From positions 16,487 to 80,486 of the forward strand of contig CAZRXF010000006.1 in NCBI GenBank assembly GCA_964604015.1: a stretch of DNA of 64,000 nucleotides, given 5' to 3'. The stretch is from an uncultured Pseudomonadota bacterium. Its GTDB lineage: Bacteria; Babelota; Babeliae; Babelales; CAIQNR01. The translations under genes were made by a program, and so were the position numbers. This document shows, piece after piece, positions 7,181 through 37,153 of this stretch (within the stretch, counting starts at the first letter, position 1; every line of letters begins with the position of its first letter). The notes under the pieces were generated by a model. That model made no database searches. It was not told the DNA's origin and saw only the letters and a list, made by a program, of their open reading frames with translations.

Positions 7181-7207
7181 TTTTAATTTTGGAACAACTT
7201 TTGATGC

Positions 7208-14388: not shown

Positions 14389-14391
14389 TTC

Positions 14392-15345: not shown

Positions 15346-16385
15346 ACAAGTGAGGGACATGACGTTGTACGGGCTGCAGGCAGTAGCGTTTGATACGGAT
15401 GCTCTTCAAAAAAATTACGATACCAAGTACACGTTTCTTGAAGGCCCTTTTCTGCACCAAAAACAGCTTTCCATCCAAGTAGTTCACGTGCTTTTTTACA
15501 GGAAAGATACTGTTCAGGAATTTCACCCGATGCATTATTTTGAATAATAGGTTCGTACTGCTCTTTACCCATTGCTTGCGCAATCAGTGCTACCATTTCA
15601 AGAACCGCCAACGGACGCTCTTCACTCAAGTTGAATATCTGCCCAACTACTGCTGGATTATCCATCTGCTGTGCAATCGTCAGATAGCCATCTACGACAT
15701 CTTTTACGTAGACATAGTCACGCACCAAAAGACCATTTGAACGAATAATGGGACGTTCATCATGAAGCAGTGAACGAATGGTGGCTGGTACGATACGGTT
15801 GAAATGCAAATCGCCACCACCAAAAATGTTACCACACCGCGTTACACAGACCGGTAACTGGTAGGTATGAAAATACGATTGTGCAAGAAGATCCGAACAA
15901 CTTTTTGAGACATCATACGGATGCTTAGCAAGCAGCGGCATATCTTCCGTGTAGGGAAGTATTTCAGCAGTTCCATATGCTTTATCGCTCGATGCAACCA
16001 CGATCTTTTTCACCCAAGGAGATAATCGGCACGCTTCAAGCAGGTTCCAGGTCCCTTCAATATTTGAATGAAAGGTCGAAAGGGGCGAACGATTGGCATA
16101 CCCAACAATTGCCTGAGCTCCAAGATGAAACACCGTTTCGATATCAAACTCATTAAGAATCCGGAGGAGTGACTGAAAATCACACAGATCACCAGTAACG
16201 TATGAAACTTTATCTTCAAGACTGTGCGTTGCTAACAATGAAAGCGGAACACGATCACGCACAAGCACCGTAACTGACGCACCCTGAGTAACAAGTTCTT
16301 CGACTAACCATCCACCCAGAAGCCCTGTTGCGCCTGTTACAAAAACCGACCGGTTTTTCCACAGAAACCTTTGCTCCTGCACCAT
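15342..16385 (-). CDS. SDR-family NDP-hexose 4,6-dehydratase (CDP-glucose 4,6-dehydratase-like)
   Basis: 347-aa ORF with the N-terminal FLWKNRSVFVTGATGLLGGWLVEEL Rossmann motif, SSDKAYG and the catalytic YDVSK (YxxxK). rfbF is present in the same cluster. Confidence 0.8.
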   Translation of the reverse strand: MVQEQRFLWKNRSVFVTGATGLLGGWLVEELVTQGASVTVLVRDRVPLSLLATHSLEDKVSYVTGDLCDFQSLLRILNEFDIETVFHLGAQAIVGYANRSPLSTFHSNIEGTWNLLEACRLSPWVKKIVVASSDKAYGTAEILPYTEDMPLLAKHPYDVSKSCSDLLAQSYFHTYQLPVCVTRCGNIFGGGDLHFNRIVPATIRSLLHDERPIIRSNGLLVRDYVYVKDVVDGYLTIAQQMDNPAVVGQIFNLSEERPLAVLEMVALIAQAMGKEQYEPIIQNNASGEIPEQYLSCKKARELLGWKAVFGAEKGLQETCTWYRNFFEEHPYQTLLPAARTTSCPSLV

Positions 16386-16485: not shown

Positions 16486-17097
16486 TTAGAGCTCACTATG
16501 ATCGACAATTTTCTGAACATGCGAGCGCCACGTATACTGATTCAATGCCTTCTTGCGCGCATTTTCTCCCATTTTTATTCGTTCATGTTCTGAAAGTGCT
16601 GCAACGTATAAACAGGCATCCACAAATCCTTGAATATCGTGATGGTTCACCAAAATTCCCACTTCATCAGTCACTGGTTTTTGCTCCTTACGAATATCGG
16701 ACACGTACAACGCAGGGCTTACAATTTCTGCAACTTGCTCAAGATCGGATGCAATGACGGGACGGGCCATACTTAAATATTCAAACAATTTGGTCGGAGA
16801 ACCAAAAAACCGAGAACCATCACTGTTTGGTTGTGTAGGACATAAAAAGGCATCACAGTGCACGAGATGCGAAGGTACTACACTCGGTACAATTTTTCCC
16901 GTAAACGTAACGTGTGGCAGTACTCCTTCACGGCGCAACTGTTCTTCAAGAGCCACCCGACCAGCGCCCTCCCCCACCAACAAAAAATGAGCTGCATGTT
17001 CCTGCTTTACCACCTGAGGAATAAGTTCCTGAAGCACGTCCACACCATGCCAGGGACCAAAAGTTCCTAAAAAACCGAACGTTATTTTTGTACGCAT
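16486..17097 (-). CDS. C-terminal (donor-binding) half only of a GT4/GT-B glycosyltransferase, either a split gene or a disrupted remnant
   Basis: 203-aa ORF starting at the post-linker motif TKITFGFLGTFGPWHGVDVL, followed by FLLVGEGAG, VTFTGKI and FLCPTQ...FGSPTKLFEYLSMARPVIASD. There is no N-terminal Rossmann domain and no obvious SD. The matching N-terminal half is at 27979..28608. Confidence 0.7.
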   Translation of the reverse strand: MRTKITFGFLGTFGPWHGVDVLQELIPQVVKQEHAAHFLLVGEGAGRVALEEQLRREGVLPHVTFTGKIVPSVVPSHLVHCDAFLCPTQPNSDGSRFFGSPTKLFEYLSMARPVIASDLEQVAEIVSPALYVSDIRKEQKPVTDEVGILVNHHDIQGFVDACLYVAALSEHERIKMGENARKKALNQYTWRSHVQKIVDHSEL

Positions 17098-17205
17098 AGC
17101 GCAGTCACTTTTAAGGCAAAAAGGTTTATAAACGAAATGGACTTTTTCCTGCTTTTGGAATAAGTACTGTAATCTCTTAAATTTTTTTTGAAAGAAAGGA
17201 GCCGT

Positions 17206-17394
17206 ATGAAAATCGTAACGCTCGCACTTCTTTTGCTCCCCTCACTTGCTCACGCCTATATTGATCCAGGTACTGGCAGCTATCTCCTTCAACTTCTGCT
17301 TGCAGGCGGATTGGGAGCACTGTACACCATCAAGACCTACTGGAGTTCGATCAAGGCATATTTTTCAAGCTTTGGTAGAAAAAAGGATAAGTAA
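17206..17394 (+). CDS. small membrane protein with a YIDPGTGS motif
   Basis: 62 aa from the ATG at 17206 (AAGGAG 4 nt upstream; the ORF track uses a TTG at 17188). It has a signal-like N-terminus, a second hydrophobic helix and a basic tail. Its stop TAA overlaps the next gene's ATG (TAATG). Confidence 0.6.
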   Translation: MKIVTLALLLLPSLAHAYIDPGTGSYLLQLLLAGGLGALYTIKTYWSSIKAYFSSFGRKKDK

Positions 17395-18752
17395 TGGAAA
17401 AAGTTGCAGGATCTTTCCGTGACCCAAGTGGCTATCTCTTTTGGTCCGAAGGTACTCTTAACCGCTCGATAGCCCCTTCGTACTTTCCTCACTATGACGC
17501 ACTCATGTCATCAGGACTGTATCAAAGCCTCATCGATAAAAAATTACTGATTTCTCATACTGAAAAAACGGAGCATTGGTCGAAACAACAACGAGTCATT
17601 GCGCCACAGCTTGTGCCATTCATCTCGTATCCGTATGAGTGGTCCTTCAGTCAACTGAAAGACGCTGCTCTTCTAACCCTTACCATCACCAAAGAAGCAC
17701 TTTCACATGGCATGATCCTCAAAGACGCCTCTGCTTACAATGTCCAGTTTATAGGGTCACACCCGATCTTTATTGATACGCTTTCTTTTGAAAAGTATGA
17801 AGCAGGAAAGCCATGGATTGCATACAAACAGTTTTGTGAACAGTTCTTGGCTCCTCTGGCACTCATGGCATACACAGACATCAGACTTAACTCTTTATTA
17901 AAAGTTAACACACAAGGGGTTGCGCTCGATCTGGCAGCAAAACTTTTACCGTTCAAAACGTATTTTAAACTCCCACTCCTCCTGCATATTCACCTCCATG
18001 CTAATGCACAAAAAAAGTATGAATCTCAGTCAACCAAGAAAACTACTGCTACCGTTTCTCAGACACAGCTTTTAGGACTTCTTGATAACCTGGAAAGTGG
18101 CATAAAAAACTGTACCTACCATGCAACTGGTACCGAATGGGCGGACTATTACAACGACGACAGCTACACCACCACAGGATTTGCAGATAAAAAACGCCTG
18201 GTTGGAGAATTCTTTGCCCTGGCCCAACCAAAAACAACGTGGGACTTGGGAGCAAACAATGGAGAATTTAGCCGCTTAGCAACACAGCACAGCGATCTCG
18301 TTCTTTCCATGGATATCGACCCAGCCTGTGTTGAAAAAAATTATTGTGCCGCCAAGAAAGAACAAAATCAGAAACTTTTGCCTTTGCTTATCGATCTGAT
18401 GAACCCAAGCTGTGCGCTTGGATGGGCAAACAAAGAACGTCAGAACTTGCAAGAACGTCCTCACCCTGATTGCATCCTTGCACTTGCGCTGATACATCAC
18501 CTTGCCATTTCAAACAACGTGCCCCTGGAAGCAGCTGCCGCGTATTGTGCTTCATTAACAACCTGGCTCATCATTGAGTTCGTACCTAAAGAGGATAAAA
18601 AGGTAAAAACATTGTTACAAAGCAGAGCCGATATTTTTGACACCTACGACCAAGACAATTTTGAACACAGTTTTTCCCAATATTTTACCGTTCTTTCAAA
18701 AGAACAAATTAAAGAATCGAAGCGAGCAGTATATTTGATGAAAAAATTATGA
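17394..18752 (+). CDS. two-domain SAM-dependent methyltransferase-like protein
   Basis: 452-aa ORF with an N-terminal SFRDPSGYLF domain and a C-terminal Rossmann-type motif TWDLGANNGEFSRLA ... LSMDID ... ILALALIHHL. Confidence 0.7.
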   Translation: MEKVAGSFRDPSGYLFWSEGTLNRSIAPSYFPHYDALMSSGLYQSLIDKKLLISHTEKTEHWSKQQRVIAPQLVPFISYPYEWSFSQLKDAALLTLTITKEALSHGMILKDASAYNVQFIGSHPIFIDTLSFEKYEAGKPWIAYKQFCEQFLAPLALMAYTDIRLNSLLKVNTQGVALDLAAKLLPFKTYFKLPLLLHIHLHANAQKKYESQSTKKTTATVSQTQLLGLLDNLESGIKNCTYHATGTEWADYYNDDSYTTTGFADKKRLVGEFFALAQPKTTWDLGANNGEFSRLATQHSDLVLSMDIDPACVEKNYCAAKKEQNQKLLPLLIDLMNPSCALGWANKERQNLQERPHPDCILALALIHHLAISNNVPLEAAAAYCASLTTWLIIEFVPKEDKKVKTLLQSRADIFDTYDQDNFEHSFSQYFTVLSKEQIKESKRAVYLMKKL

Positions 18753-20329
18753 ACACACAGCGATATCATTGGCTTATTCCCCTCTTTTCTGCCTGGTTAT
18801 TTGCTTCCTATCCTGTCATTTTTATGTGGTCAAAAAACTGGGAAGACGTTTTTGTTAGAGAAGTAGCACTCGATCTTTCTCTCATTTTTACAGCAACTAC
18901 GGTTCTTTATGTTGCCTACCGCACGTATTTCAAAAATTCAGTCAAGGCAAGCATTGCAGCAAGTCTCAGTAACTTCATGTTCTTTTCGTTTGGGTACATT
19001 TTTAACCATGCATCGCCTACTTTTATTTTGCTCAAAGAAACAACCAAGATATGGAACTACAATGTTCTCATTCCTTTATGGATCGTTCTTTTCTTTGCAT
19101 GTTTATACCGCCTCAAAAGCACTTCAGAAAAATTATGCAGCTTCTTGTACAATCTACAGAACATTCTCAGCCTTGGATTGCTCTTGTCCACATCATTTCC
19201 TCTCTTTGCCCGGTTGTTCCAGAACGATAGGGCTTCTGATGCCACGCCAAAACTGCAGGCATCGGCAAGAAAACGTCCCAATATCTACTACATCATTCTT
19301 GATGAATACGCCCGGCATGACGTTTTAGAGAATTTGTACGATTTTGACAACACCCCCTTTCTCGAAAAGCTTGAGCAACAAGGATTTTTTATCGCACGAA
19401 AAAGTTGTTCTAATTATTCAATGACATCACTCTCATTACCATCGTCTCTTTCTATGAACTTCTTGGATGTTCCCGAAGAAGACAAACAAAAGCCCTATTA
19501 CTCACCATGGCGCTACTCACCTTCCTTAACCATCTCACGCAGTCCCCTCATACAACTTCTCAAAGAGTACGGATATCAATTTGTGCATATATCGAGTGGA
19601 TTCGGGTTTACACTCCAACTAAAAATTGCCGACCTTGAACTGGGAGACTACTATTTTTCATCCTTCACCTCATTTCTTCTTGATAGAAGCCTTTGGGGAC
19701 CCTTTGCTCGACGATTCCCTCGTATAAGCTTAGAAAAAACCCCTGCAAAAACTATTTTAGACCAACTCCATTACCTGGAAGAATCGGCAACCCTTCCCTC
19801 CCCTCATTTTGTTTTTTGTCACATCCTCTGTCCTCATGATCCTTTTGTCTTTGATGAAAATGGAAATGAGGTACCGGAGTACGAAAAGGTCCTTGATCAT
19901 TCAGTCGACTACAGTGAGCCTTACAAAAAACAACTCACTGCTCTTAACCAAAAGCTCCTCCCTACCCTCACTACAATGCTTACCCATGATCCTGACTCTA
20001 TCATCATCATTCAAAGTGATCATGGAGTTGCATGGTACAAAGGGGATTTTAAATATTTTTATGAAAAAGATGGGCGCTTTCAAAGCCGACTTTTACCAGA
20101 ACGCATGGGTATTTTAAATGCCTATCATTTTCCCGAAAACGACAAGCCCTCTATCCCAGAGGACGTAACTCCCGTCAACAGTTTCCGCATCATTCTGAAC
20201 CATTATTTAGGAACAAAGCTCCCTCTCTTACCCAATACATGCTGCTGGTCAATGGTTCCAAGACCTTTTGAATTCATTGAATACCCATCAGAAGAAATTA
20301 ATAAAATCGAAATTAAAAAAGATGAATAA
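18749..20329 (+). CDS. membrane-anchored alkaline-phosphatase-superfamily (sulfatase/LTA-synthase-like) transferase
   Basis: 526-aa ORF with about 5 N-terminal TM helices, then PNIYYIILDEYARHD, HFVFCHILCPHDPF and IIIQSDHG. It overlaps the upstream gene by 4 nt. Confidence 0.65.
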   Translation: MNTQRYHWLIPLFSAWLFASYPVIFMWSKNWEDVFVREVALDLSLIFTATTVLYVAYRTYFKNSVKASIAASLSNFMFFSFGYIFNHASPTFILLKETTKIWNYNVLIPLWIVLFFACLYRLKSTSEKLCSFLYNLQNILSLGLLLSTSFPLFARLFQNDRASDATPKLQASARKRPNIYYIILDEYARHDVLENLYDFDNTPFLEKLEQQGFFIARKSCSNYSMTSLSLPSSLSMNFLDVPEEDKQKPYYSPWRYSPSLTISRSPLIQLLKEYGYQFVHISSGFGFTLQLKIADLELGDYYFSSFTSFLLDRSLWGPFARRFPRISLEKTPAKTILDQLHYLEESATLPSPHFVFCHILCPHDPFVFDENGNEVPEYEKVLDHSVDYSEPYKKQLTALNQKLLPTLTTMLTHDPDSIIIIQSDHGVAWYKGDFKYFYEKDGRFQSRLLPERMGILNAYHFPENDKPSIPEDVTPVNSFRIILNHYLGTKLPLLPNTCCWSMVPRPFEFIEYPSEEINKIEIKKDE

Positions 20330-21086
20330 CTTCCCAAACAGCAATTCAACGTATAATTCGTTTTTCGCTCAACATTACGATTTTTTTTACACTACCAAAA
20401 AGCCCTATCAGCAAGAGGCTCAGAATCTTATTTCTCTTTTTAAACAACAGAGACTCACGGTAGAAAAACCAATCCTCGATATCGGTTGCGGGACAGGTGA
20501 ACATGCACTCCATATTGCACGCCAAGGATATGTGGTGAAAGGAATCGACATTTCGCCTCACATGATACGGCAAGCGCAAGAAAAACAAGGAACACTACAA
20601 AACGTCCACTTCCAATGCCAATCAGTTGAGAAAGAACAAGGCACCTATAGTTATGCTTACGCTCTTTTTAATGTTATCAACTGTCTGAGTGATGAAACAG
20701 CACTCAAGGCATTTTTCGAAGCAGTGGCAAATGCACTTCAACACAACGGTATCTTTGTATTCGATTGTTGGCACACCAAAGCCATCTTAGCAACCCCGCC
20801 AAGGTACTTGGAAGACGACATATCGTTTCCCACCGAAATTGTAAGACGAAAAGTTACTCCCTCTTTTTCTCCTGAAACACTTGAATGCGTACTTACCTAT
20901 CAGTACGCATTCAAAAAAGGCACTGAAGAGGTTATTCACCACATTAGACTTTTTAAAGAGGAAACAATCCTCACTCTTCTTGCTGATTGCGGATTCAAGC
21001 TTGTGGCGTCCATGGGACCTCTCAGCGAATGCCGATCTCTCCTTGAGGCTGACCGGTACAGCACCTACGTTGTACAAAAATGCTAG
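20322..21086 (+). CDS. class I SAM-dependent methyltransferase
   Basis: ILDIGCGTGEHALHIA (motif I), VKGIDISP and GIFVFDCW. The ATG at 20322 overlaps the upstream stop by 8 nt (the ORF track starts at 20268). Confidence 0.85.
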   Translation: MNNFPNSNSTYNSFFAQHYDFFYTTKKPYQQEAQNLISLFKQQRLTVEKPILDIGCGTGEHALHIARQGYVVKGIDISPHMIRQAQEKQGTLQNVHFQCQSVEKEQGTYSYAYALFNVINCLSDETALKAFFEAVANALQHNGIFVFDCWHTKAILATPPRYLEDDISFPTEIVRRKVTPSFSPETLECVLTYQYAFKKGTEEVIHHIRLFKEETILTLLADCGFKLVASMGPLSECRSLLEADRYSTYVVQKC

Positions 21087-21099
21087 ATTTGGTGGTTTC

Positions 21100-21630
21100 A
21101 TGATTTTTCAAGAACTTTCAATACCTGGGGCCTTTCTTCTCACGCTCGAAAAGCACACCGATGAGCGCGGATTTTTCGCACGAACATTTTGTAAAAAAAT
21201 GTTTCAAGAGCATGGCCTGTGCACAGACTTTGTGCAAGACAGTATGTCATATAGTAAAAAACGGGGAACATTGCGCGGACTTCACTATCAAGATCCCTAC
21301 CCAGAAATAAAACTCATTCAATGCATTCAGGGTGAGTTATTTGATGTCATGGTAGATCTGCGCAAAGACTCACCATCATTTGGAACATGGATCTCAGTCA
21401 TCTTAGATGCACAAAACCCACAAGCGCTCTATATCCCCACAGGCATTGCTCATGGATTTCAGTCGTTGAAAGACGACACTATCCTTCTTTATAAAATTTC
21501 AGAATATTACCATCCTGAAACAGCACGAACCCTTCATTGGAATGACCCAACACTTGCCATCACGTGGCCTCTCAAAGAAAACCTCATTATTTCACAAAAA
21601 GATCAATCAGCACCCTTTTTCTCAATGTAA
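21100..21630 (+). CDS. NDP-4-keto-6-deoxyhexose 3,5-epimerase (RmlC-like cupin)
   Basis: 176 aa from the ATG at 21100, with DERGFFARTF, RGLHYQ, KLIQCIQGELFDVMVDLR and GIAHGFQSL. The ORF track's 20881 start runs through the preceding gene. Confidence 0.85.
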   Translation: MIFQELSIPGAFLLTLEKHTDERGFFARTFCKKMFQEHGLCTDFVQDSMSYSKKRGTLRGLHYQDPYPEIKLIQCIQGELFDVMVDLRKDSPSFGTWISVILDAQNPQALYIPTGIAHGFQSLKDDTILLYKISEYYHPETARTLHWNDPTLAITWPLKENLIISQKDQSAPFFSM

Positions 21631-21642
21631 GAAAGGATTTTT

Positions 21643-22818
21643 ATGCAGTACAAAGAAACGGTATTTGGATCGTTCATTGAACAGGTCGACCTTGACGCAG
21701 TCTCAAAAGCACTTGAACTTGGATGGCTTGGACAAGGCAGCTATACCAAAGAGTTTGAAGACAAAGCACAGGCCTATTGTCAGGCATCTGATCGCTATTT
21801 TGTCGGAGTCAGCACTGGTTATGCAGCCATCCACCTTGCACTTGTTCTTGCCGGAGTTAAAAAAGGCGATGAAGTCATCACTCCTTCGCTTAACAACATT
21901 GCTGATTTTCAAGCAATTGAACATACAGGGGCCGATATCGTGTTTTGCGATAGCAGAGATGACAATTTCTGCATCGATTTAGACAAAGCAGAACAACTGA
22001 TTACCCCAAGAACAAAAGCTATCATCATCATCGATTATGGATGCTGGCAACCAGATTATGAAAAAGCTGAATACCTTGCCAAAACATATAATCTTCGGAT
22101 TATTCACGACGCCTGCCACTCATTTGGCTGGAAATACAAGGGAAAAATGATCGGAAGTTTTTCTGATTTTGCAGCATTCAGTTTTGACCCTGTTAAAACC
22201 ATTACCTGCATTGATGGGGGAATCCTTGCTGTTAAAACAGAAGAAGAACAACGCCACGCTCAAGAACTAAGAATTATGGGAATGACACAACCATCAGCCG
22301 TAAATTATCAAAACAGACGCGCCTGGGGATACGACGTTACTAAAGAAGGATTCAGGTACCATCTTGCAAACGTTCACGCCGCGCTTGGTATTGCACAGTT
22401 AGAAAAAATAGACCGTATCACTGCCATCCAGCGCTCTCTTTTTGAGTTATACACTCAGGAACTTTCCGGCATTGAAGAAATGCGCATCCCACATTGCAAT
22501 CTTGATGACATTATTCCGCTTTTATATGTTCCTCGCCTTCCTAAAGATCGCCGCGATGAATTTAGAAAAGTGATGCAAGAACAAGGGTTTGAGACAGGAA
22601 CGCATTGGAAGCCAGGACATCTTTTTACGTACTTCTCTGATCGCAAGAAAGGTGATTTAACCGTTATAAACAACATTTACGAAGAGTTCGTTTCACTTCC
22701 TTTCCACTGTCGCGTAAAACCGGAAAGCATCAAGGAAATAGGCACACTCTGTAAAAAGTTCTTCGCACAACAAGTTTTTACCGGGGTGCAGGTAACAGGA
22801 AGTCAGCCTCAATTATAA
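21643..22818 (+). CDS. DegT/DnrJ/EryC1-type PLP-dependent sugar aminotransferase
   Basis: 391-aa ORF with VGVSTGYAAIHLAL, IIHDACHSFG and FSFDPVKTITCIDGG, where the Schiff-base lysine is retained. Confidence 0.85.
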   Translation: MQYKETVFGSFIEQVDLDAVSKALELGWLGQGSYTKEFEDKAQAYCQASDRYFVGVSTGYAAIHLALVLAGVKKGDEVITPSLNNIADFQAIEHTGADIVFCDSRDDNFCIDLDKAEQLITPRTKAIIIIDYGCWQPDYEKAEYLAKTYNLRIIHDACHSFGWKYKGKMIGSFSDFAAFSFDPVKTITCIDGGILAVKTEEEQRHAQELRIMGMTQPSAVNYQNRRAWGYDVTKEGFRYHLANVHAALGIAQLEKIDRITAIQRSLFELYTQELSGIEEMRIPHCNLDDIIPLLYVPRLPKDRRDEFRKVMQEQGFETGTHWKPGHLFTYFSDRKKGDLTVINNIYEEFVSLPFHCRVKPESIKEIGTLCKKFFAQQVFTGVQVTGSQPQL

Positions 22819-22831
22819 TTCACGCAGAATG

Positions 22832-23698
22832 TTACAATGTTCCTTGGGAAATTTTGTTAAGCGGTGAGCTTTTTACGGCAGCTCTGAATATCTGCTCATC
22901 ACCCCACACTTTCCAGGGAGCATTGTTTTTTTGCCACAGCGCCTCAAGGTGCTCCTGATCACGAACAGTGTCCATACAGTACCAAAACCCATCATGCTGA
23001 TACGCCATAAGTTGCTTTTCTGCAGAAAGCATAGGAAGGACATCGGTTTCAAAAACTGCTTGTGATCCTGATGGACAGTAGTCAAATATGGCTCGATCAC
23101 AGACAAAAAACCCACCATTAATTCTTTCAAGAGCAAGTGGTTTTTTTTCTAAAAATGAAGTCACCAGACCATTTTCTTCTATGCGCAAGTTCCCAAATCG
23201 AGAGGGAGGACACACGCTCGTAAGGGTCGCTATTTTTTTATGAGAAAGATGGAAGTTCATCGTATCTTCAATATTTACATTAGAAAGACCATCACCGTAC
23301 GTCAGGAGAAAGGTATCAGTATCAATGTAAGGAGCTATCTGCAACACTCGTGAACCGGTTTGATCAAGAAGTCCAGTATTTACCAACGTAACTTCCCACT
23401 CTTCCTCATTCTGTTGGTGCTCAATAATGCCACCCGTTCTTGTATTAATCGTGCAATCAACTCCCTGTAACCGATACTGCAAAAAGTATTCTTTTATCAT
23501 TTCACCTTTGTATCCAAGGCAAATAATAAATCGATAGAATCCATACTGAGCATACACTTTCATAATGTGCCAGAGCACCGGCTTTCCACCGACAGGAACC
23601 ATAGGTTTTGGACGAAACTGCGTTTCTTCTCGTAACCGAGTCCCCAAACCACCTGCCAAAATGACTACTGGATTTTCATATTTCTTTTTCATCAACAT
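22832..23698 (-). CDS. rfbF: glucose-1-phosphate cytidylyltransferase
   Basis: VVILAGGLGTRLREETQFRPKPMVPVGGKPVLWHIMKVYAQYGFYRFIICLGYKG, INGGFFV and DGFWYCMDTVRDQEHLEALW match the RfbF pattern along the whole length. There is a ~25-aa C-terminal extension. Confidence 0.9.
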   Translation of the reverse strand: MLMKKKYENPVVILAGGLGTRLREETQFRPKPMVPVGGKPVLWHIMKVYAQYGFYRFIICLGYKGEMIKEYFLQYRLQGVDCTINTRTGGIIEHQQNEEEWEVTLVNTGLLDQTGSRVLQIAPYIDTDTFLLTYGDGLSNVNIEDTMNFHLSHKKIATLTSVCPPSRFGNLRIEENGLVTSFLEKKPLALERINGGFFVCDRAIFDYCPSGSQAVFETDVLPMLSAEKQLMAYQHDGFWYCMDTVRDQEHLEALWQKNNAPWKVWGDEQIFRAAVKSSPLNKISQGTL

Positions 23699-24795
23699 CT
23701 TATAAGCCTCCAGGTATCTTCAAATCCACCTCTTGTTGCCTCAACGTGCGATCCTTTAATTGCCTTAGTAATTTCCTTGAATTCCAAAGAATAAGGCGAT
23801 GTTTCATCAAAAAGGTAGTGCTGTCCGGCGTCTATCTTTCTGTTTCTCACAGTACTCATGAACTCAACAATGGCTTTTTTTACAAACTGAGGAGCCAATG
23901 CTTTTATTCGCATTTTCTGTCTTGCAAGGAAAGGAAGTTCACGAGGTTCCAAACAAAAGGATTCAAAGACCCCGTCAATAAATGCATTGGAAGCTCTTAC
24001 AGCCTCCCTCATCGCGTCTGCCTCTGATAAACCAACAGATTCCCTAAAACTTTCTGCCAACCCTTGCTCCAACATTCTTTTGTGCTTTTCAAAATCTTTT
24101 CCCAAAAGCCAGGTCACGTTGTAAGTGACGGAAGTGGCCAAGTCACTCATCTCTTTGAAATAAAAAGGCTCTGCAGAAAAATGTCCCTTGCCCCTGATGA
24201 GAGCCTGCATCCCAAACATATTATCGAAAAAGACCAGGCACGGAGCATAGCGATAAGAGCTCATCACACACTCACGAAACTTGTCTGTCCTCAGAACCAT
24301 ATAAAAGAGTCCAATGTTACTTGTCAGAAAGGAATTTAAGCGCTCTAGCGGATTATTTTGTTCAAATGATCGAGGGTTTTCATAATATCCAGAACAAAAC
24401 CAATCGACCATGCCACCCTGAAAACTAAAGCCATACTGATATCCATAGAAAAAACTGTAATCAGGATGATTTTTTAAAAAGGTTGCAGCCTCAGTAATTG
24501 CATGGGGAGAAAAAAAATCGTCATCCCCTGCAATAAGCGTATAGGGAGTGGTCAGGGCATCAAGGCATCCTGCTACCTTCTGGGCAAACGAGGTACTTGG
24601 ATCAAATTCAAGGTGCACAGGAGAATAAGATGTATCTGATATAGCTTGTACAAAGCTTCTTGTGTACTTCTTGTCCTCTTCCTTGTTTGAATCAACAACA
24701 ACTACTTTTGCCTGAGGGATCATTTTTTTATAAAAAGAAAGTGCTCGCTTTAGATGTTCAGGATTTCGGTACGTTAACAATACGATGGTAACCAT
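23692..24795 (-). CDS. GT-A-like glycosyltransferase-domain protein, paralogue A
   Basis: 367 aa from the ATG at 24795 (GGAGGAG upstream), with MVTIVLLTYRNPEHLKRAL and IAGDDDFF (DxD-like). It is clearly paralogous to the next gene. Confidence 0.65.
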   Translation of the reverse strand: MVTIVLLTYRNPEHLKRALSFYKKMIPQAKVVVVDSNKEEDKKYTRSFVQAISDTSYSPVHLEFDPSTSFAQKVAGCLDALTTPYTLIAGDDDFFSPHAITEAATFLKNHPDYSFFYGYQYGFSFQGGMVDWFCSGYYENPRSFEQNNPLERLNSFLTSNIGLFYMVLRTDKFRECVMSSYRYAPCLVFFDNMFGMQALIRGKGHFSAEPFYFKEMSDLATSVTYNVTWLLGKDFEKHKRMLEQGLAESFRESVGLSEADAMREAVRASNAFIDGVFESFCLEPRELPFLARQKMRIKALAPQFVKKAIVEFMSTVRNRKIDAGQHYLFDETSPYSLEFKEITKAIKGSHVEATRGGFEDTWRLIRC

Positions 24796-24802
24796 GCTCC
24801 TC

Positions 24803-25882
24803 CTAAATGCGTTTTGTGTACCTAAAATCATCTGTTCGAAGCGCCATGATACCCGATGAAGCAATCTCATGTTTCATGATTTCAAATTCCTTTGCGTACA
24901 CTGACTTTTTATCTAAAAGAGCAGAGCGATTTGCTGAAATGAAGAAATTTTTTATTCCAAATTTTACCTGTGCCAAAGCATCTTGCACTCGTTGAGGCAG
25001 TTTTCCCTTGATCACTTTTTTCAATGAATGCTCCTGTTCAAAAGTCAAAGCAGTTCGGTGCTCTATAAACTCATCGATACATTGCGAACTTACAGTCTCA
25101 GCCTGTTCAGAAGAACAGAGATTTTTTTCAATAAAAACTTCTTTCAAACACGCCTTCATGCGAACAAAGTCCTGCTTAAATTTTTCACCAATGAGCCACT
25201 CTTGCAAGTAGATCATTCCATACGAATCATCGCTCAACTCCCTCCAATGAAACGGCAGAGGGAGGAATTTCGCCTTTCCTTCAAGAAGAAGAAGCATCGT
25301 TGCGAAATTATCAGAGGTAGCATACTCCCTTGCAACCTTGGCACTACGAGAAAGAACATTTTGAAAAATAGAAGTACGAAAGACACTGTAAAAAGAAGCA
25401 CTGTAGCGCGGGAAAAAGTCTCTAAGCCGTTCAAGCGGTGAATCTTTTTCAAATGAGATCATGCCATCAAAGTAACCGATATAATAGGAAGAAATATCCC
25501 TGCCATCATAGGTAAATCCGTACATTCTTCCATAGGCAAAAGCGTAATCAGGATGAGATTTAAGAAAGTGCATAGCCTCAAGCATTCCTCGTTGCGAAAA
25601 GAAATCATCAACCCCAGCAAGCAGCAGATATGATGTGACAACTTCCCGGCTTACTGCAGCAATCTTCTCGATATAAGAGAGATCTTTATCGTATTCAAAA
25701 AGTACTGGTGCAAAAAGACGTTCCTCAGCTGCTACAAGAACATCCCTCACTTGTTGCCGAAATTCATCTTTGCTTGAATCGGCAATTAAAATGCGCCCCT
25801 TAAATTCGATCTGTTTATAGTATGAAAGTGCACGTTTAAGGTGATCTGGATTATTGTGAGAGAGCAAAAGAATCGTAATCAT
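24803..25882 (-). CDS. GT-A-like glycosyltransferase-domain protein, paralogue B
   Basis: 359 aa from the ATG at 25882, with MITILLLSHNNPDHLKRAL, LAGVDDFF and HPDYAFAYG. It is collinear with paralogue A (HPDYSFFYG, SPLERL/NPLERL). Confidence 0.65.
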   Translation of the reverse strand: MITILLLSHNNPDHLKRALSYYKQIEFKGRILIADSSKDEFRQQVRDVLVAAEERLFAPVLFEYDKDLSYIEKIAAVSREVVTSYLLLAGVDDFFSQRGMLEAMHFLKSHPDYAFAYGRMYGFTYDGRDISSYYIGYFDGMISFEKDSPLERLRDFFPRYSASFYSVFRTSIFQNVLSRSAKVAREYATSDNFATMLLLLEGKAKFLPLPFHWRELSDDSYGMIYLQEWLIGEKFKQDFVRMKACLKEVFIEKNLCSSEQAETVSSQCIDEFIEHRTALTFEQEHSLKKVIKGKLPQRVQDALAQVKFGIKNFFISANRSALLDKKSVYAKEFEIMKHEIASSGIMALRTDDFRYTKRI

Positions 25883-25890
25883 TGTTCCCC

Positions 25891-27159
25891 TTAGGATCGT
25901 ATCTGCCACGTTACTCGTGGTTTTATTTTTCCCTTTTGGTCCTGCCAAAATGTTTCATCAAGCATGAAATCGTTTTGTTGTTCTTGTCGCATAGTAAAGG
26001 AGACTAACTCTTTTTCGGCAAACACCGTTGCTTCATCAAAATCCATCATTTCCCCTTCATTGCCACGATTAAAAATACTCAGACCAACAGCTATCGTTCC
26101 TTCTTGGAAAATATGCTCTGGGATACTGCAAAAGAGCGAAGTCTTTTGTGCCTGTTGGTCAGATGCATAAGAATGCAACAGGTAGGAAGTTGAAAATAAA
26201 AGAGTGCCCGTTTCGTCATAGAAAAAGAGAATGGCAAGGAGTTCCTTTTGCTTATCAACCACCTCATACACAACTTCAATGGTGACTTTTTCTTCCAAAT
26301 TGAATTGCTCAGTTTCTTGCAGCGATGCATTCACCACTTTTACCGCATACAAGGTGATTACCGAGCCAAGGACCAAGCCATCGTGCCCCCACAGCATCGA
26401 ACTGCGTGATAAGGTATTTACTCCCAAATAGGTTTTAATAGCATCAGCAGGCGCTCCCATAAACTGTTGTTGCCCTTTACTGAGCACCATGACACGGGAA
26501 CACAATTTTCTGACCGCTTGAAGTTGATGGGAAACGAAGATAATCGTACGCCCTTCTTTTCCCAATGCACCCATCGAATCAATACATTTCTTTTCAAACT
26601 CATAGTCCCCTACCGCAAGCACTTCATCAATCAACAAGATTTGAGAGCCCAAATGTGCGGCAATCGAAAACGCAAGGCGTAATCGCATACCTGAGGAATA
26701 TTTTTTAACCGGAATTTCAAGAAACTTTTCGATCCCTGAAAATGCCACAATTTCATCGAACTTTTGGCTTACTTCCCAGCGACGCATACCTAAAATGACA
26801 CCGCTCAGATAAATATTTTCTCGGCCCGTCAGTTCTGCATGGAACCCTGTCCCCACTTCTAAAAGGCTTGAAACTCTGCCTCGAATAATCGCTCGACCGC
26901 TGGTGGGAGTCGTAATTTTGCTCAAAATTTTAAGGAGGGTACTTTTGCCCGAACCATTTTTACCAATGATGCCTAGAACCTCTCCTTGCTCGACATCGAA
27001 AGAAACATCATTAAGAGCATAAAAGGTTGATTGCTTAGTTTTACGTCTAAACAACGCTGAAGCCTGCGAAAGAAGCAATTCACGAAAACTCATATCTCGT
27101 TTTTCATACGCATCGATTTCATACGTCTTTGAAAGATGTTCAACAATAATCTGTTTCAT
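25891..27159 (-). CDS. wzt: polysaccharide ABC exporter ATP-binding protein with a C-terminal extra domain (Wzt/TagH-like)
   Basis: Walker A GKNGSGKST, signature YSSGMRLRL and Walker B ILLIDE, followed by a ~170-aa C-terminal beta-rich extension. Confidence 0.85.
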   Translation of the reverse strand: MKQIIVEHLSKTYEIDAYEKRDMSFRELLLSQASALFRRKTKQSTFYALNDVSFDVEQGEVLGIIGKNGSGKSTLLKILSKITTPTSGRAIIRGRVSSLLEVGTGFHAELTGRENIYLSGVILGMRRWEVSQKFDEIVAFSGIEKFLEIPVKKYSSGMRLRLAFSIAAHLGSQILLIDEVLAVGDYEFEKKCIDSMGALGKEGRTIIFVSHQLQAVRKLCSRVMVLSKGQQQFMGAPADAIKTYLGVNTLSRSSMLWGHDGLVLGSVITLYAVKVVNASLQETEQFNLEEKVTIEVVYEVVDKQKELLAILFFYDETGTLLFSTSYLLHSYASDQQAQKTSLFCSIPEHIFQEGTIAVGLSIFNRGNEGEMMDFDEATVFAEKELVSFTMRQEQQNDFMLDETFWQDQKGKIKPRVTWQIRS

Positions 27160-27166
27160 ATGCTTC

Positions 27167-27991
27167 CTAAATCAGATCCGCAAAACTTTCTTCTGCTTTT
27201 TTAAAGTACAGAAGCGCCACCCCACAACTAGCCACCGTGATACCACAAGAAACAAGGACCGGCCCCAGATACAACGGTTCTGAAAGCAAACTGTAACGAA
27301 ATCCATTGATAATTCCCGCTAACGGATTCAAGGCCAGAAGGTATCGCAGGCCATGAGGCACTGCAGAAAGTTCAAACCCAACCGGCGTGCAATAAATCCC
27401 AAGCTGCACAACAAACGGCAAAATGTGACGAAAATCACGATAGCGAACAATGAGCGTAGCAAAAAGAAGGCTCACCACAAATGAGAAAATACACAACCAA
27501 CCAACAAAAAGTGGGAGTAACAAGAATTTTGACGAGGGCCACACCCCATAGCGAACAATTGATAAGATGACATAGAAAAAGAAGGCAACTCCAAAATCAA
27601 CCAAGCTGCAAAAGATTCTGCTTGCCGGTAAAATCATGCGAGGGAAATAGACTTTTGAAACAAGTTCGACGTTAACGACAAAACTACTACTTCCATACAT
27701 CAACGTATCGGCAAAAAATTGCCATGCTAACATCGCCGAAAAGACTACCAGTGGATATGGAGCACCGCTACTTGGAATATGCGCAATGCGGCTGAAAATA
27801 ATCGTAAAAATAGCAACGGTCAACAAAGGACGAAGCAACACCCACACAATCCCGATAACTGTTTGGCGATAGTGAACCAAAATATCACGCCATCCTAAAA
27901 AGAGAAAAACCTCTCGGTAATCCCATAGTTCACTCAGGACCGTTTTCCATGTTTTTTTTGAGGAAATGACCGTCTCATTCATTGCATACAC
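27167..27991 (-). CDS. wzm: ABC-2 type polysaccharide exporter permease (Wzm/TagG-like)
   Basis: 274-aa ORF with six hydrophobic helices and an N-terminal REVFLFLGWRDILVHYRQTVIGIVW motif. Start is the GTG at 27991 or the ATG at 27982. It lies immediately upstream of wzt. Confidence 0.85.
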   Translation of the reverse strand: MYAMNETVISSKKTWKTVLSELWDYREVFLFLGWRDILVHYRQTVIGIVWVLLRPLLTVAIFTIIFSRIAHIPSSGAPYPLVVFSAMLAWQFFADTLMYGSSSFVVNVELVSKVYFPRMILPASRIFCSLVDFGVAFFFYVILSIVRYGVWPSSKFLLLPLFVGWLCIFSFVVSLLFATLIVRYRDFRHILPFVVQLGIYCTPVGFELSAVPHGLRYLLALNPLAGIINGFRYSLLSEPLYLGPVLVSCGITVASCGVALLYFKKAEESFADLI

Positions 27992-28608
27992 TCTCTTTTT
28001 ACTCGTTCAGGATCAAACTGATCGGTATCAACGCCATTGGGATTTACGAGGATTTTGTGTTCAGGAATTCCCCACCCAATAAGCTCATTTTTTAAGATTT
28101 CTGAAACTACCACAAGATAATCTGCTTGTCTTATTGTCCATCGTTCAATCCACGAAAAAGGCCGTATAAGAAAAGCTAATTTTTTTTCAGACACCCAGGT
28201 GAAAGCGGTCCACACTTCAGAACAGTTGTATTCCAAGATAAGTTTTTTTTTGTACCACCAGGCAAGCAACACACCAGTAAAATTCAGAAGTGTGTAGCGC
28301 TGATAAATGCACGAAACGGGATAGTTTTTTACCAATGGCCGTGTTTGGAAAAAGAAAAAGAATGAGGACAGAAAACAGTTTGCTTTCCACTTTAATGGCC
28401 GTAACCAGGAAGGATTGGAAAGTTTTATCAGTGATTCAAGTTGAACATTATTCAGAACAGAATCAAGGCATGAACAGGCGCAGACCACTGGGTACCCCAG
28501 ATCATTAAATCCTTTTATGACCCCCAAGGTATGCGTAACTGAACCTCCTGCCACGAGTTCTTCGTCCCAGATATCAGCACGCAGATAGAGAATATGCCCT
28601 CTTTTCAC
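27979..28608 (-). CDS. N-terminal (acceptor-side) half only of a GT4/GT-B glycosyltransferase
   Basis: 209-aa ORF with VAGGSVTHTLGVIKGFNDLGYPV, LILEYNCSEVW and ADYLVVVSEILKNEL, ending ...ILVNPNGVDTDQFDPERVKRECMQ*. The GTG start abuts the asnB-like stop, and the 3' end overlaps the wzm start by 13 nt. The C-terminal half is at 16486..17097. Confidence 0.7.
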   Translation of the reverse strand: MKRGHILYLRADIWDEELVAGGSVTHTLGVIKGFNDLGYPVVCACSCLDSVLNNVQLESLIKLSNPSWLRPLKWKANCFLSSFFFFFQTRPLVKNYPVSCIYQRYTLLNFTGVLLAWWYKKKLILEYNCSEVWTAFTWVSEKKLAFLIRPFSWIERWTIRQADYLVVVSEILKNELIGWGIPEHKILVNPNGVDTDQFDPERVKRECMQ

Positions 28609-30564
28609 TCAAAAGACCTCAGTTGCCAACACATTCTGCACCACCCACAACTGCGTGGCATAATTAGCCCGCGTTGTTTGCGTACGAGAAAGAAGCATCT
28701 CAATAGCTTGCTTTTCAAATACAACCGAAAGTGCATCCCGTTTTCTTTCCACAAGGTCGACAAAATAATCCCTAAAATAGGTACCTTGCTTAAACCAGCG
28801 CGTTGTTGGAGCGGCAAATCCCACTTTTTTACGATAGATGACATCGTCGGGCAAAATCCCCTCGCACGCCTTTTTAAGAATGTACTTGGTCATGCCATTA
28901 CGATATTTCAACGAAGTCGGAACCTGAAATGCAAATTCAACATGTGCATGATCAAGAAAAGGAACACGACCTTCCACTGATGTTGCCATGGTCATTTTAT
29001 CAACCCGCATCAATAGCAATTCTGGTAGCCGTTGCTTGAGTTCCAGGTAAATCATCGACTGTAAAAAATCACCGCCCGGCAATGTTTCATAAAATTTTTT
29101 AAGGTGATAATCAACGATCGCGTAACTATCGTACGCCTGATCAAGCCCTGGATAGATTTTCCTGACCACAGGATCTTCAAAAATATTTGTATTCGCTCCT
29201 GTTAAAAGTTCTTGTTTCCACCCTTCAGTAAACGCCAAAGCGCCAGACCAGAAAAGATGATGTCCCGATGCCCACTGTTCTAAAAGTCCAAGCCGTGAAT
29301 ATTTGTGAGGGAAGAGGCGAGAGGCAAGCCAGGTTCCTGCTTGTTTCACCGCACCAGGAACTCCAACAGTAGGCCGATAGTATCGACGGTACACATCAAG
29401 ATACTGTCCATAGGTTTGATAGCCGCAATAGAGCTCATCAGACCCCTCTCCTACCTGCACTACCGTCACTCCGGCATCACGCAGCAATTTCGAAACGTAG
29501 TACAGCGGGATGCAGACAGAGTCAGCTAACGGTTCATCTTGGTGGTAGACCATGGTTTGAAAAAATTCGAATGCTTCTTTTTCTGAGATGGTAATTTCGT
29601 GATGCTCGGTGTTAAAAAGCTTTGAGACCTTACGCGCCCACGCAACTTCACTGTATTCAGGCCCATCGGAAAACGACACATTGAACGTTTTGACTCGATC
29701 GGTAAACCGAGACATTAAGGCCGTGATTAAGCTTGAATCGATCCCCCCCGATAAAAATACGCCAAAAGGAACGTCCGATATCATGCGTTTTTGAACAGCA
29801 TCTGTCAGAAGAGTACGAATCTCACTCACACAAAACTGTTCATTGGTAAGATCTTCTTGACGATAAAATTGGGCAGAAATAAGGGGCGAATACCATTCAT
29901 GGAATGACACTTCTCGTTGCTTATCAAGCTTGAGATACATGCCTGCCGGAAGTTTGTAGACCCCTTGGTACAAGGTATAAGGAGCAGGAGTAACCAGAAA
30001 AGTGAGGTAGTGATACAACGCTTGTGAATTCAATTTTTTAGTAAGCCACGGTAAATTCCAGAGCGTTTTAATTTCTGATGCAAAACTGAAATAGCCACCC
30101 TCGAGTGAAAAATAAAAAGGTTTTACCCCAATGCGATCGCGCACACAGTACCATTCATCGTTAACCAGATCGCCCAGTACTGCAGCAAACATGCCTTCAA
30201 GTTTTTCAAGACAACCAATTCCCCATTCCTTGAATGCGTACAAAAAAACTTCCGTGTCACTTTGGGAGATAAACTCATACCCTCTGCCTTCAAGTTCAGT
30301 GCGCAGTTTTCGATAGTTGTAAATCTCTCCATTAAATATAATGACCACCGTTTTATCTCGATCAAACATGGGCTGTGATCCTGCCTGCGTCAAATCAATG
30401 ATGCTTAAGCGACGATAGGCAAATACTGCACGATAGCGCTCAGAAACCCAGGTTCCAGCTCCATCAGGCCCTCGGTGGGCAATCGTGGTGTGCAATTTTT
30501 CAAGAAGTACGTCATCAACTATAAACTGCTTGCCTGTGGCAAGGTACCCCGCAAATCCACACAT
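28609..30564 (-). CDS. asparagine synthase (glutamine-hydrolysing)-family amidotransferase
   Basis: 651-aa ORF with MCGFAGY (Cys2 Ntn nucleophile), SDTEV and the PP-loop FLSGGIDSS. The glycan-locus context suggests sugar-carboxylate amidation rather than Asn synthesis. Confidence 0.85.
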   Translation of the reverse strand: MCGFAGYLATGKQFIVDDVLLEKLHTTIAHRGPDGAGTWVSERYRAVFAYRRLSIIDLTQAGSQPMFDRDKTVVIIFNGEIYNYRKLRTELEGRGYEFISQSDTEVFLYAFKEWGIGCLEKLEGMFAAVLGDLVNDEWYCVRDRIGVKPFYFSLEGGYFSFASEIKTLWNLPWLTKKLNSQALYHYLTFLVTPAPYTLYQGVYKLPAGMYLKLDKQREVSFHEWYSPLISAQFYRQEDLTNEQFCVSEIRTLLTDAVQKRMISDVPFGVFLSGGIDSSLITALMSRFTDRVKTFNVSFSDGPEYSEVAWARKVSKLFNTEHHEITISEKEAFEFFQTMVYHQDEPLADSVCIPLYYVSKLLRDAGVTVVQVGEGSDELYCGYQTYGQYLDVYRRYYRPTVGVPGAVKQAGTWLASRLFPHKYSRLGLLEQWASGHHLFWSGALAFTEGWKQELLTGANTNIFEDPVVRKIYPGLDQAYDSYAIVDYHLKKFYETLPGGDFLQSMIYLELKQRLPELLLMRVDKMTMATSVEGRVPFLDHAHVEFAFQVPTSLKYRNGMTKYILKKACEGILPDDVIYRKKVGFAAPTTRWFKQGTYFRDYFVDLVERKRDALSVVFEKQAIEMLLSRTQTTRANYATQLWVVQNVLATEVF

Positions 30565-31600: not shown

Positions 31601-31629
31601 GGCATCTCTCTTTTTTGCGCATTCTCTTG

Positions 31630-35192: not shown

Positions 35193-35213
35193 ATCCTTTT
35201 CCTTTTCATGCCT

Positions 35214-36362: not shown

Positions 36363-36515
36363 ACTTTCTCCTTCACAGCTACTAAGAACTTTGTGAATGC
36401 GGATTACCATACCACGGCCCGCTCTGGTTAGCAAAACGAAAAAACTATTTTTAATCTTCTGACAACGGGAGTAAAATGGGTACTTATTTCCCTTTATTTT
36501 GGTAGGAAGTGAAAC

Positions 36516-37037
36516 ATGGATATCCTCTATGCTCCGTGGCGAGAAGAATACACAACATCAACAGCACAAGGGCCAAAAGGGCAGGAAACTGTTAGCCCTG
36601 AAGAATGTGTTTTTTGTGTACGTATCGCGCAAACAAATGATGAGGAAAATTTTATAGTCGCCCGTTACCGACACCATGCTCTTTTTCTCAATCGATATCC
36701 CTACAACCCCGGTCACCTTCTTATCATTCCACTTGAGCACAAATCGGGACTTGAAGATCTTTCTCTTGAAGCTCAACACGAACTTATTCAACTAAGTTCC
36801 CACTGTATAACCATCCTTAAAACTGAAGTAAAAGCTCAGGGAATTAATATTGGGCTTAATTTAGGTAAAGCAGCTGGTGCGGGTATCCCTGCCCATCTGC
36901 ACGCCCATGTATTACCTCGTTGGTATGGGGACACCAACTTCCTCCCAACGCTTGCCAACACCAAACAAGTATCCAGCGATTTGGGCAAGCTGTACAAACA
37001 GTTAAGCCCAAAATTCAAAGCCGTCACCCTTTCTTAA
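36516..37037 (+). CDS. HIT-family nucleotide hydrolase/transferase
   Basis: 173-aa ORF with the histidine triad HLHAHVLPR, CVFC and NRYPYNPGHLLIIP. Confidence 0.85.
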   Translation: MDILYAPWREEYTTSTAQGPKGQETVSPEECVFCVRIAQTNDEENFIVARYRHHALFLNRYPYNPGHLLIIPLEHKSGLEDLSLEAQHELIQLSSHCITILKTEVKAQGINIGLNLGKAAGAGIPAHLHAHVLPRWYGDTNFLPTLANTKQVSSDLGKLYKQLSPKFKAVTLS

Positions 37038-37153
37038 TACAATTAGAATTTGACACAAGATACCCAGTTGCCCCCCTTTTTGATTGCGGTATCTTAGTCC
37101 TAAATGTAATGCGTAGGTCTTTTCGATCGATATTAGCTGTGGAGGTTATGGTC

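Follow-up and report, generated by a model that had tools for sequence, protein, structure and literature searches.

The window analysed here is a stretch of 64,000 nucleotides from contig CAZRXF010000006.1 (assembly GCA_964604015.1) of an uncultured bacterium of the Babelota. Two of its genes each encode one half of a glycosyltransferase of family 4 (GT4), an enzyme family of the GT-B fold, and between them lie the genes of an ABC exporter, wzm and wzt, with a set of further glycan-related genes referred to below as cargo. The two half-genes, the N-half and the C-half, are the following (lengths in amino acids, aa; assignments from open reading frames, ORFs, and Pfam):

27979..28608, minus strand, GT4 N-half gene: 209 aa, the N-terminal (acceptor-side) Rossmann domain only
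16486..17097, minus strand, GT4 C-half gene: 203 aa, the C-terminal (nucleotide-sugar donor-side) Rossmann domain only

The ORFs are separated by 10,881 bp and do not form the single polypeptide of a GT4/GT-B enzyme. In the Pfam scan the N-half matched PF13439 (Glyco_transf_4) over profile positions 2-170 of 170 (E=3e-17, 63 bits against a cut-off of 28.5) as well as PF13579, and no C-domain was found in it. The C-half matched PF13692 (Glyco_trans_1_4; E=9e-22, 78 bits) and PF00534 (Glycos_transf_1; positions 15-171 of 172, 53 bits), and no N-domain was found in it. The original prediction, made from the letters without database searches, had described the two ORFs as N-terminal-only and C-terminal-only, and both the ORFs with their quoted peptides and the restriction of each to one domain were confirmed. 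The N-half carries the family invariants GGSVxHTxGV, YQRY, EYN(G/C)SE, VVVS and NPNGV, ends 15 residues past NPNGVD, and keeps the glycine-rich GGSxxH loop together with the other motifs of catalytically competent GT4 N-domains. The C-half starts six residues before the first beta-strand motif, FGFxGTFGxWHG, and carries the invariant FFGSPTKLFEY motif and the C-terminal helix. Searching each half against PDB sequences with phmmer returned no matches and profile searches were needed; the C-half profile matched the C-domains of solved GT4/GT5 structures, including PDB entries in which the C-domain of P. abyssi glycogen synthase is an autonomous folded unit.

By sequence, the halves are complementary N- and C-terminal parts of one GT4/GT-B fold, encoded on the same strand in the right order and cut in the interdomain linker. 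Separate homology searches, which the original prediction had suggested, led from each half to the same full-length relatives with adjoining coordinates. In a 418-aa ORF of one such relative (L020, 9992-11248; loci of relatives are designated by L and a number), N-half residues 3-206 align to residues 4-207 and C-half residues 1-203 to residues 217-416, and only about 6-10 linker residues are unaccounted for when the halves are mapped to full-length relatives. The best NCBIfam model for both halves, and the nearest named one, is TIGR04063 ('stp3' PEP-CTERM/XrtA-system glycosyltransferase, 397 positions), on which N-half residues 152-202 fall at positions 148-198 and C-half residues 4-127 at positions 213-334; the scores of 30 and 47 bits are far below the cut-off of 442, and the match serves as a coordinate check and denotes resemblance, not membership. 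The predicted fit of the halves into one GT4, with the break in the linker, was thus upheld on both L020 and TIGR04063.

The directly concatenated halves were modelled with AlphaFold2 (AF2), using an alignment that held fused as well as half-size homologues. The result is a confident GT-B fold (predicted local distance difference test, pLDDT, 95.7, and 84 in the junction block; predicted template modelling score, pTM, 0.93), in which the C-terminal helix, residues 399-410 (H399-410), lies on the C-half. Foldseek matched this model to the solved GT4 structures of GlgM (6tvp), MshA (3c4q), BshA (5d01/3mbo), PimB' (3oka), PglA (8dqd) and WaaG (2iv7) with E from 6e-20 to 1e-13. Both domains superpose on the concatenated model, over about 410-430 aligned columns and with template modelling scores of about 0.64-0.73. 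The solved enzymes share 12-18% identity with the model and are all single chains; their donor and acceptor specificities are not transferable.

The half-size form of both proteins is widespread among relatives. The 67 best N-half homologues (92% to about 43% identity; E<=2.3e-45) are 196-231 aa long, except one of 286 aa, and the 40 best C-half homologues (100% to about 46% identity) are 201-222 aa long, with two exceptions. Every N-half ends within about 25 residues after NPNGVD..F.P, and every C-half begins just before FGFxGTFGxWHG. Many columns are invariant in the two alignments, including the GGSVxHTxGV loop and FFGSPTKLFEY, and neither frameshifts nor stops were found in the halves across dozens of protein clusters. 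The ratio of nonsynonymous to synonymous divergence (dN/dS) is 0.07-0.13 for the N-half and 0.17-0.20 for the C-half, and is 0.10 in the unsaturated pair L012/L013 (dS 0.6), indicating that both half-genes are under purifying selection.

In at least 10 genomes or contigs the halves bracket wzm-wzt and variable cargo. Both occur on one contig in the window, L001/L006, L004/L008, L009, L010, L011, L012+L125, L015+L126 and L045, always with wzm-wzt between them; that L013 carries both we only infer. Pairwise identities among N-halves and among C-halves correlate across genomes (r=0.75), and the trees of the two are congruent. The common gene order is asnB-like, N-half, wzm, wzt, cargo, C-half, (dehydratase), GT2, membrane protein, serine hydroxymethyltransferase (SHMT), elongation factor P (EF-P) and NusB, and the minimal form is asnB-like, N-half, wzm, wzt, C-half. 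An extra methyltransferase gene separates the asnB-like gene from the N-half in L009; in L001, L004, L014 and L018 such a gene separates the N-half from wzm. Spacing, taken as the distance between the N-half end and the C-half start, and the genes it holds are as follows:

L009 and L010: 1.6 kb, wzm and a short wzt only
L045: 2.3 kb, wzm, a short wzt and about 0.7 kb more
L011: 3.7 kb, wzm, wzt and two methyltransferases
the window and L001/L006 (10.9 kb), L015+L126 (12.2 kb), L012+L125 (12.7 kb) and L004/L008 (14.0 kb): wzm, wzt and cargo in each

The cargo varies by genome; the window has wzt through rfbF in common with L001, and the pair of genes for a 452-aa protein and a sulfatase-like transferase in common with L004. 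In L010 wzm is called as two ORFs of 74 and 124 aa (5712-6437), across which tblastn aligns window Wzm residues 10-274, suggesting a frameshift or an assembly error in that contig.

At the upstream end of the N-half gene, the TGA of the asnB-like gene (28611-28609) abuts the GTG at 28608, as originally described. At its downstream end the N-half TGA overlaps the ATG at 27982 as ATGA, which suggests translational coupling with wzm. This ATG is a likelier wzm start than the GTG at 27991, because the Wzm proteins of relatives align from residue 3-4 onward, and the overlap is accordingly 4 nt instead of the 13 nt first reported. The small-protein/452-aa/sulfatase-like trio of cargo genes is inverted in the window, so that the C-half is here the first gene of its own transcription unit and has upstream of it:

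17098..17187, divergent intergenic region: 90 nt, AT-rich

No GGAGG-type Shine-Dalgarno motif was found before the C-half ATG, in agreement with the earlier observation. A consensus sigma-70 promoter was likewise not found in 17098..17187, the single match of the scan lying inside the C-half gene (16698-16725). In the relatives L006, L008, L009 and L011 the C-half start overlaps or closely follows the upstream gene.

Intact counterparts of the split enzyme exist, and beyond this clade the family is almost always fused. Scanning one genome per species with the N-half profile yielded 33 loci, and most of those with a label were metagenome-assembled genomes (MAGs) of Candidatus Babeliales, Dependentiae or Babelota; distant homologues in fused form come from MAGs of Bacteroidetes, Nitrospinaceae and Desulfobacterales. 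In a tree of the asnB-like gene, that of the window nests among Babeliales/Dependentiae loci, and this nesting, together with housekeeping flanks common to these loci, points to a bacterium from wastewater that is probably Dependentiae-like. Three architectures were distinguished:

Type i: asnB-like gene, then a full-length GT4 of 409-442 aa, often in 2-3 tandem copies; deeper-branching Babeliales
Type ii: asnB-like gene, N-only gene, wzm, wzt, cargo, full-length GT4; L016, L017, L018, L026, L036 and L014+L037
Type iii: both halves standalone; for example the window

The asnB-adjacent full-length GT4s of Babeliales/Dependentiae MAGs (L019, L020, L023, L029) belong to the same family as the halves, with 41-50% identity to each, and share with them the motifs GGSxxH, YQRY, EYNGSE, NPNGV and FFGSPTKLFEY and the asnB-like neighbour. 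They differ in being single polypeptides of 409-442 aa, whereas the domains in the window are parted by wzm-wzt and cargo. Among 1.84 billion library representatives, the relatives closest to the N-half that are not split measure 398-440 aa, and the rest are larger proteins of several domains. When metagenomes were scanned with the C-half profile, about 74 of 80 loci proved to be fused, usually near an asnB-like gene; four apparent C-only matches were cut by contig ends, and L045 alone is split and brackets wzm-wzt. Second tandem GT4 copies occupy stop-to-stop frames of about 865-930 codons (L020 11249-13981, L023 8516-11308, L025 8666-11263 and L035 5661-8405), with the GT4 module starting near codon 445-495, and are resembled by the library proteins P0210, P0217, P0220, P0222 and P0224 (909-927 aa). 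An origin of the split at an inversion breakpoint was considered and rejected, the 452-aa protein of the window giving no match to the ~490-aa N-terminal extension of these ~910-aa GT4 paralogues.

The type ii loci bear on whether the halves descend from one parent or two. Here the N-only gene lies at about 10001-10670 and the full-length GT4 3-6 kb downstream, at the C-half position, and the N-domain of the latter shares 40-47% identity with the N-only protein that its genome encodes. Mean pairwise identities within type ii are 0.61 for the N-only protein, 0.56 for the fused N-domain and 0.61 for the fused C-domain. Neighbour-joining placed the standalone N-halves among the N-domains of full-length genes that adjoin the asnB-like gene, and the type ii full-length N-domains form a separate clade (95% bootstrap) that joins the N-only genes in 2% of replicates. 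The C-halves are interleaved with the type ii full-length C-domains (48% support), and the two share one syntenic position, ahead of the genes for the GT2 and the membrane protein. Because of this clustering and shared position, the C-half is probably orthologous to the C-domain of the downstream GT4, whose N-domain is distinct from the N-only gene. The grouping of all N-only genes as monophyletic received 24% support, deep nodes are weak, and the C-domain tree does not separate the paralogues.

Two histories can be proposed. An ancient insertion of wzm-wzt alone into the linker is one possible origin: wzm-wzt may have moved into the linker of the asnB-adjacent gene, some lineages later fusing a paralogous N-domain onto the C-half. 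Alternatively, and only tentatively, two tandem GT4 paralogues underwent reciprocal domain loss; in this scheme, put forward with equal reserve, the asnB-adjacent copy would have lost its C-domain and the downstream copy would later have lost its N-domain, possibly more than once. Each history requires two changes on the asnB-like gene tree, and the direction of change between types ii and iii is equally parsimonious either way. If reciprocal loss is correct, the standalone N-half would be a portable acceptor module, working in trans with the C-domain of another polypeptide. This would explain its persistence beside a full-length GT4, and would make it the natural equivalent of GT-B heterodimers engineered by 'mix and match', genetically wired to Wzm/Wzt.

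One of the two readings offered in the original prediction, that a 10.9-kb export/CDP-sugar cassette recently disrupted a GT4 gene and left an inert scar, is contradicted by the comparisons and very unlikely. It accords with the right order of the halves on one strand, the break in the linker and the existence of intact relatives, and the guanine-plus-cytosine content of the block (0.415-0.43) is slightly below that of the window (about 0.44). However, the split is common to relatives at 44-80% identity with differing cargo and 1.6-14 kb spacing, the starts and stops of the halves are conserved in position, and the dN/dS of 0.07-0.20, with no frameshifts or stops in dozens of clusters, is not that of a disrupted gene. 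The block, 17098..27978, has neither flanking repeats nor an integrase or transposase gene, and it is not compositionally distinct, its tetranucleotide z-scores lying between -1.4 and +0.8. Nor is it the complete CDP-sugar module that had been described: the sugar pathway crosses its borders, with the rfbF-like gene inside and the matching CDP-glucose 4,6-dehydratase-like gene (15342..16385) outside. Inspection of the syntenic loci of relatives, another of the suggested checks, revealed intact GT4 genes beside the asnB-like gene in deeper-branching MAGs and, among the split loci, varying spacing and cargo. A programmed excisable element of the skin/nifD kind, the excision of which would rejoin the halves, is extremely improbable. 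Genes interrupted in that way also keep both halves conserved across relatives, but no recombinase domain was found by Pfam among the 11 block genes, and border direct repeats do not exceed chance-level imperfect matches of 14-24 nt. Contigs of four metagenome runs contain no joints, although contigs can miss rare forms; moreover, a conserved stop closes the N-half and a conserved ATG opens the C-half, their ends overlap or abut neighbouring genes, and the block carries the essential exporter genes wzm and wzt. An assembly or binning artefact, conceivable for a sequence from a metagenome assembly, is scarcely credible. Logan contigs assembled independently from two wastewater metagenome runs span 15500-29500 and show neither differences nor joints, so the split arrangement is not an artefact of assembly, and the same architecture recurs in independent assemblies from many studies. 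The split is old and kept by selection in a group of Dependentiae-like bacteria, and it is probably not a broken gene.

We favour, with moderate confidence, the interpretation that the two half-genes are functional and encode a non-covalent two-subunit (heterodimeric) GT-B enzyme in an ABC-transporter-dependent surface-glycan pathway, because the halves are co-inherited, diverge in a correlated manner and both keep catalytic-type motifs. A lone GT-B C-domain has no acceptor site, so the conservation of the C-half implies a partner N-domain. A genuinely split enzyme, the other reading of the original prediction, is better supported than the scar, although a single parent gene in two pieces may be too simple. 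In the proposed mechanism the N-half would be made in step with the asnB-like amidotransferase and Wzm, and would bind a lipid-linked acceptor at the membrane, presumably a polyprenyl-linked glycan; the C-half would bind the nucleotide-sugar donor and bring the C-terminal helix, which in GT-B enzymes normally packs back onto the N-domain. The two would assemble non-covalently and act in the Wzm/Wzt pathway encoded between them, and the slot from wzt to the C-half is a variable-cargo site in which sugar-modification genes have collected. Physical association, catalytic activity and the sugar that would be transferred are matters of inference. Several points weigh against this interpretation. 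The half-genes lie in different transcription units in the window, the C-half having no obvious Shine-Dalgarno motif. A search for RNA runs returned none. Five or six sister genomes pair the N-only gene with a full-length GT4 and have no C-only gene within 10 kb, which means that the N-half is not strictly dependent on a C-only partner. The AF2 chain is covalently joined and its alignment included fused homologues, so that the model speaks for compatibility of the halves, not for their docking in trans. Finally, the view is that of a 64-kb window, and a GT4 partner may be encoded elsewhere in the genome. It is accordingly conceivable, if rather unlikely, that both halves are functional without being dedicated partners. 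The N-only protein might then, with no better prospects, have a role of its own as an acceptor-binding or adaptor subunit tied to Wzm/Wzt or the amidotransferase, as a chain-length modulator, or as a borrower of C-domains, and the C-only protein might, just as doubtfully, work with a different N-domain or as a donor-binding module. The type ii N-only gene is as constrained as the neighbouring full-length GT4 with no C-only gene nearby, and the tight coupling of the N-half is with its asnB-like and wzm neighbours rather than with the C-half. The glycosyltransferase EpsF has reportedly been overexpressed in a truncated, N-terminal form to study how this affects exopolysaccharide chain length (PMC7023835). 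Against independent roles, however, at least 10 genomes or contigs have these as the sole GT4 N-domain and sole C-domain of the locus, and the two co-vary; the strong conservation of a lone C-domain is hard to explain without an N-domain partner, and the N-half keeps the GGSxxH loop and the motifs of catalytically competent GT4 N-domains.

Nearly all GT-B glycosyltransferases are single chains, and a split that is conserved and selected within the very large GT4 family would demonstrate an independent, viable GT-B fission. The eukaryotic UDP-GlcNAc transferase Alg13/Alg14, which has split relatives in bacteria or archaea, is a GT-B enzyme of two associating polypeptides, in which Alg14 is the N-domain and Alg13 the donor-binding C-domain, and every reported natural split GT-B gene is related to it (PMC10937113). 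The window resembles this system in having the N- and C-terminal Rossmann domains on separate polypeptides, with the association proposed here. It differs in that Alg13/Alg14 is MurG-like while the window halves match the GT4-type families PF13439, PF13692 and PF00534, neither half matching the Alg14 or Glyco_tran_28_C families in Pfam (E<=0.01), and in that the window genes are non-adjacent and flank an ABC exporter. An engineered pair, the N-domain of UGT74B1 and the C-domain of UGT74C1 cut at the linker and expressed from separate genes, auto-assembles into an active dimer (Bretagne et al. 2024, PMC10937113). This mixed-parent dimer parallels the possible two-paralogue origin of the window halves; the parents are, however, plant GT1 enzymes acting on soluble acceptors, and the pair is artificial. 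The cleaved parent NB1//CB1 was inactive (PMC10937113), so that assembly is no guarantee of activity.

The window otherwise resembles loci for ABC-transporter-dependent O-antigens in combining wzm, a wzt with a C-terminal extension, several glycosyltransferases and nucleotide-sugar genes. In ABC-transporter-dependent assembly of O-antigens and other glycans, Wzm/Wzt operate with cytoplasmic GT4 polymerases. The methyltransferases of the window locus could cap the chain. We know of no described ABC-dependent glycan system with exporter genes nested between glycosyltransferase halves; a literature search likewise found no description of such nesting, and no direct precedent for a split GT4 or in work on Dependentiae glycosyltransferases. 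That the halves are kept apart by exporter genes and a variable cargo slot is unusual. The locus offers a natural test case for the assembly of acceptor and donor domains in trans, of interest for glycoengineering, and a worked example of gene fission or reciprocal domain loss with intermediates extant in sister genomes. For annotation, ORFs of half size called 'glycosyltransferase' in the glycan loci of Dependentiae ought not to be marked as pseudogenes. The finding, drawn from sequence analysis of uncultured organisms, has the value of a lead.

The genes around and between the halves are listed below, with the source of each assignment:

28609..30564, minus strand, asnB-like glutamine amidotransferase: Pfam Asn_synthase and GATase_7; NCBIfam TIGR03108-like, 454 bits, below cut-off
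27167..27982, minus strand, wzm, ABC-2 permease: NCBIfam Wzm/RfbD-like match, below the equivalog cut-off; ORF listed from GTG 27991
25891..27159, minus strand, wzt, ABC ATPase with C-terminal extension: ABC_tran, 78 bits; NCBIfam Wzt/TagH-like, below the equivalog cut-offs
24803..25948, minus strand, GT2-like protein of a 381/392-aa paralogous pair: weak GT2 matches in Pfam
23692..24870, minus strand, GT2-like protein of the same pair: weak GT2 matches in Pfam
22832..23698, minus strand, rfbF-like nucleotidyltransferase: Pfam
17188..22818, plus strand, opposite-strand cargo of six genes: Pfam; the last two encode an RmlC-like epimerase and a DegT aminotransferase
from 17188, plus strand, first cargo gene: small signal-peptide protein of 68 aa with a YIDPGTGS motif
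17394..18752, plus strand, 452-aa protein with no family match: Pfam methyltransferase match sub-threshold only
between the 452-aa protein and the methyltransferase, plus strand, sulfatase-like transferase: the small-protein/452-aa/sulfatase-like trio spans 17188..20329
20268..21086, plus strand, methyltransferase: as listed, overlaps the sulfatase-like gene by 62 nt
20881..21630, plus strand, RmlC-like epimerase: domain begins at residue 79, likely start ATG 21100
15342..16385, minus strand, CDP-glucose 4,6-dehydratase-like enzyme of the short-chain dehydrogenase/reductase (SDR) type: Pfam, NCBIfam
14392..15360, minus strand, PgfS/ArnC-like polyprenyl-phosphate GT2: Pfam, NCBIfam
13261..14388, minus strand, polytopic membrane protein: Pfam, NCBIfam
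30578..36434, minus strand, upstream sugar-nucleotide genes: ManC-like nucleotidyltransferase, ADH_zinc_N/GFO_IDH_MocA fusion, UDP-sugar 6-dehydrogenase and UDP-GlcNAc 2-epimerase; Pfam

An ABC-2 permease and an ABC ATPase of the Wzm/Wzt/TagGH type adjoin glycan synthesis genes here, which identifies an export locus. Pfam ABC2_membrane is matched by the wzm of relatives, and the C-terminal extension of Wzt matches Wzt_C weakly (21.6 bits, below the cut-off of 30.4); in L009 and L010 a short Wzt of 261 aa is without the extension. Split relatives and fused ones both keep the asnB-like neighbour, which is syntenic in L001-L034 and in many metagenome loci. The block 13261..16385 is retained after the C-half or the full-length GT4 in L006, L008, L009, L011, L016-L018 and L045, and the gene order of 30578..36434 is the same in L001, L004 and L011. 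Within the latter, 31630..33801 (minus strand) encodes the 723-aa ADH_zinc_N and GFO_IDH_MocA fusion, which is kept upstream of the asnB-like gene in L001, L004, L009, L010 and L011.

Of the earlier description of the intervening DNA, the count of eleven genes in two convergent groups stands, and the first 'methyltransferase' (17394..18752) does not, given its sub-threshold Pfam match. Homologues of the GT2-like pair lie downstream of wzt in L001, L012, L013, L015 and L036, immediately so except in L036, and the two paralogues (23692..25948) are candidate polymerising or terminating enzymes of the exported glycan. The L004 homologues of the 452-aa protein (64% identity) and the sulfatase-like transferase (44%) are on the operon strand, between the N-half and wzm, and are preceded by a small ORF of 77 aa for which homology to the small protein of the window is not established. 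Mechanical gene starts are probably too long for 20881..21630, 20268..21086 and 27167..27991.

An Rfam scan of the window returned only a tmRNA gene and nothing near the halves; this gene, at 47495..47888 on the minus strand (RF00023, 148.7 bits), has the tag peptide ADQSGKHVPVMDYSYGSHAVLAA. Three long ORFs, 3959..7072 (minus strand, 1037 aa), 9685..11832 (minus strand, 715 aa) and 36920..38821 (plus strand, 633 aa), have no Pfam match at E<=1e-5. The most atypical tetranucleotide composition in the window is that of the stretch 2501-7500 (z=3.3).

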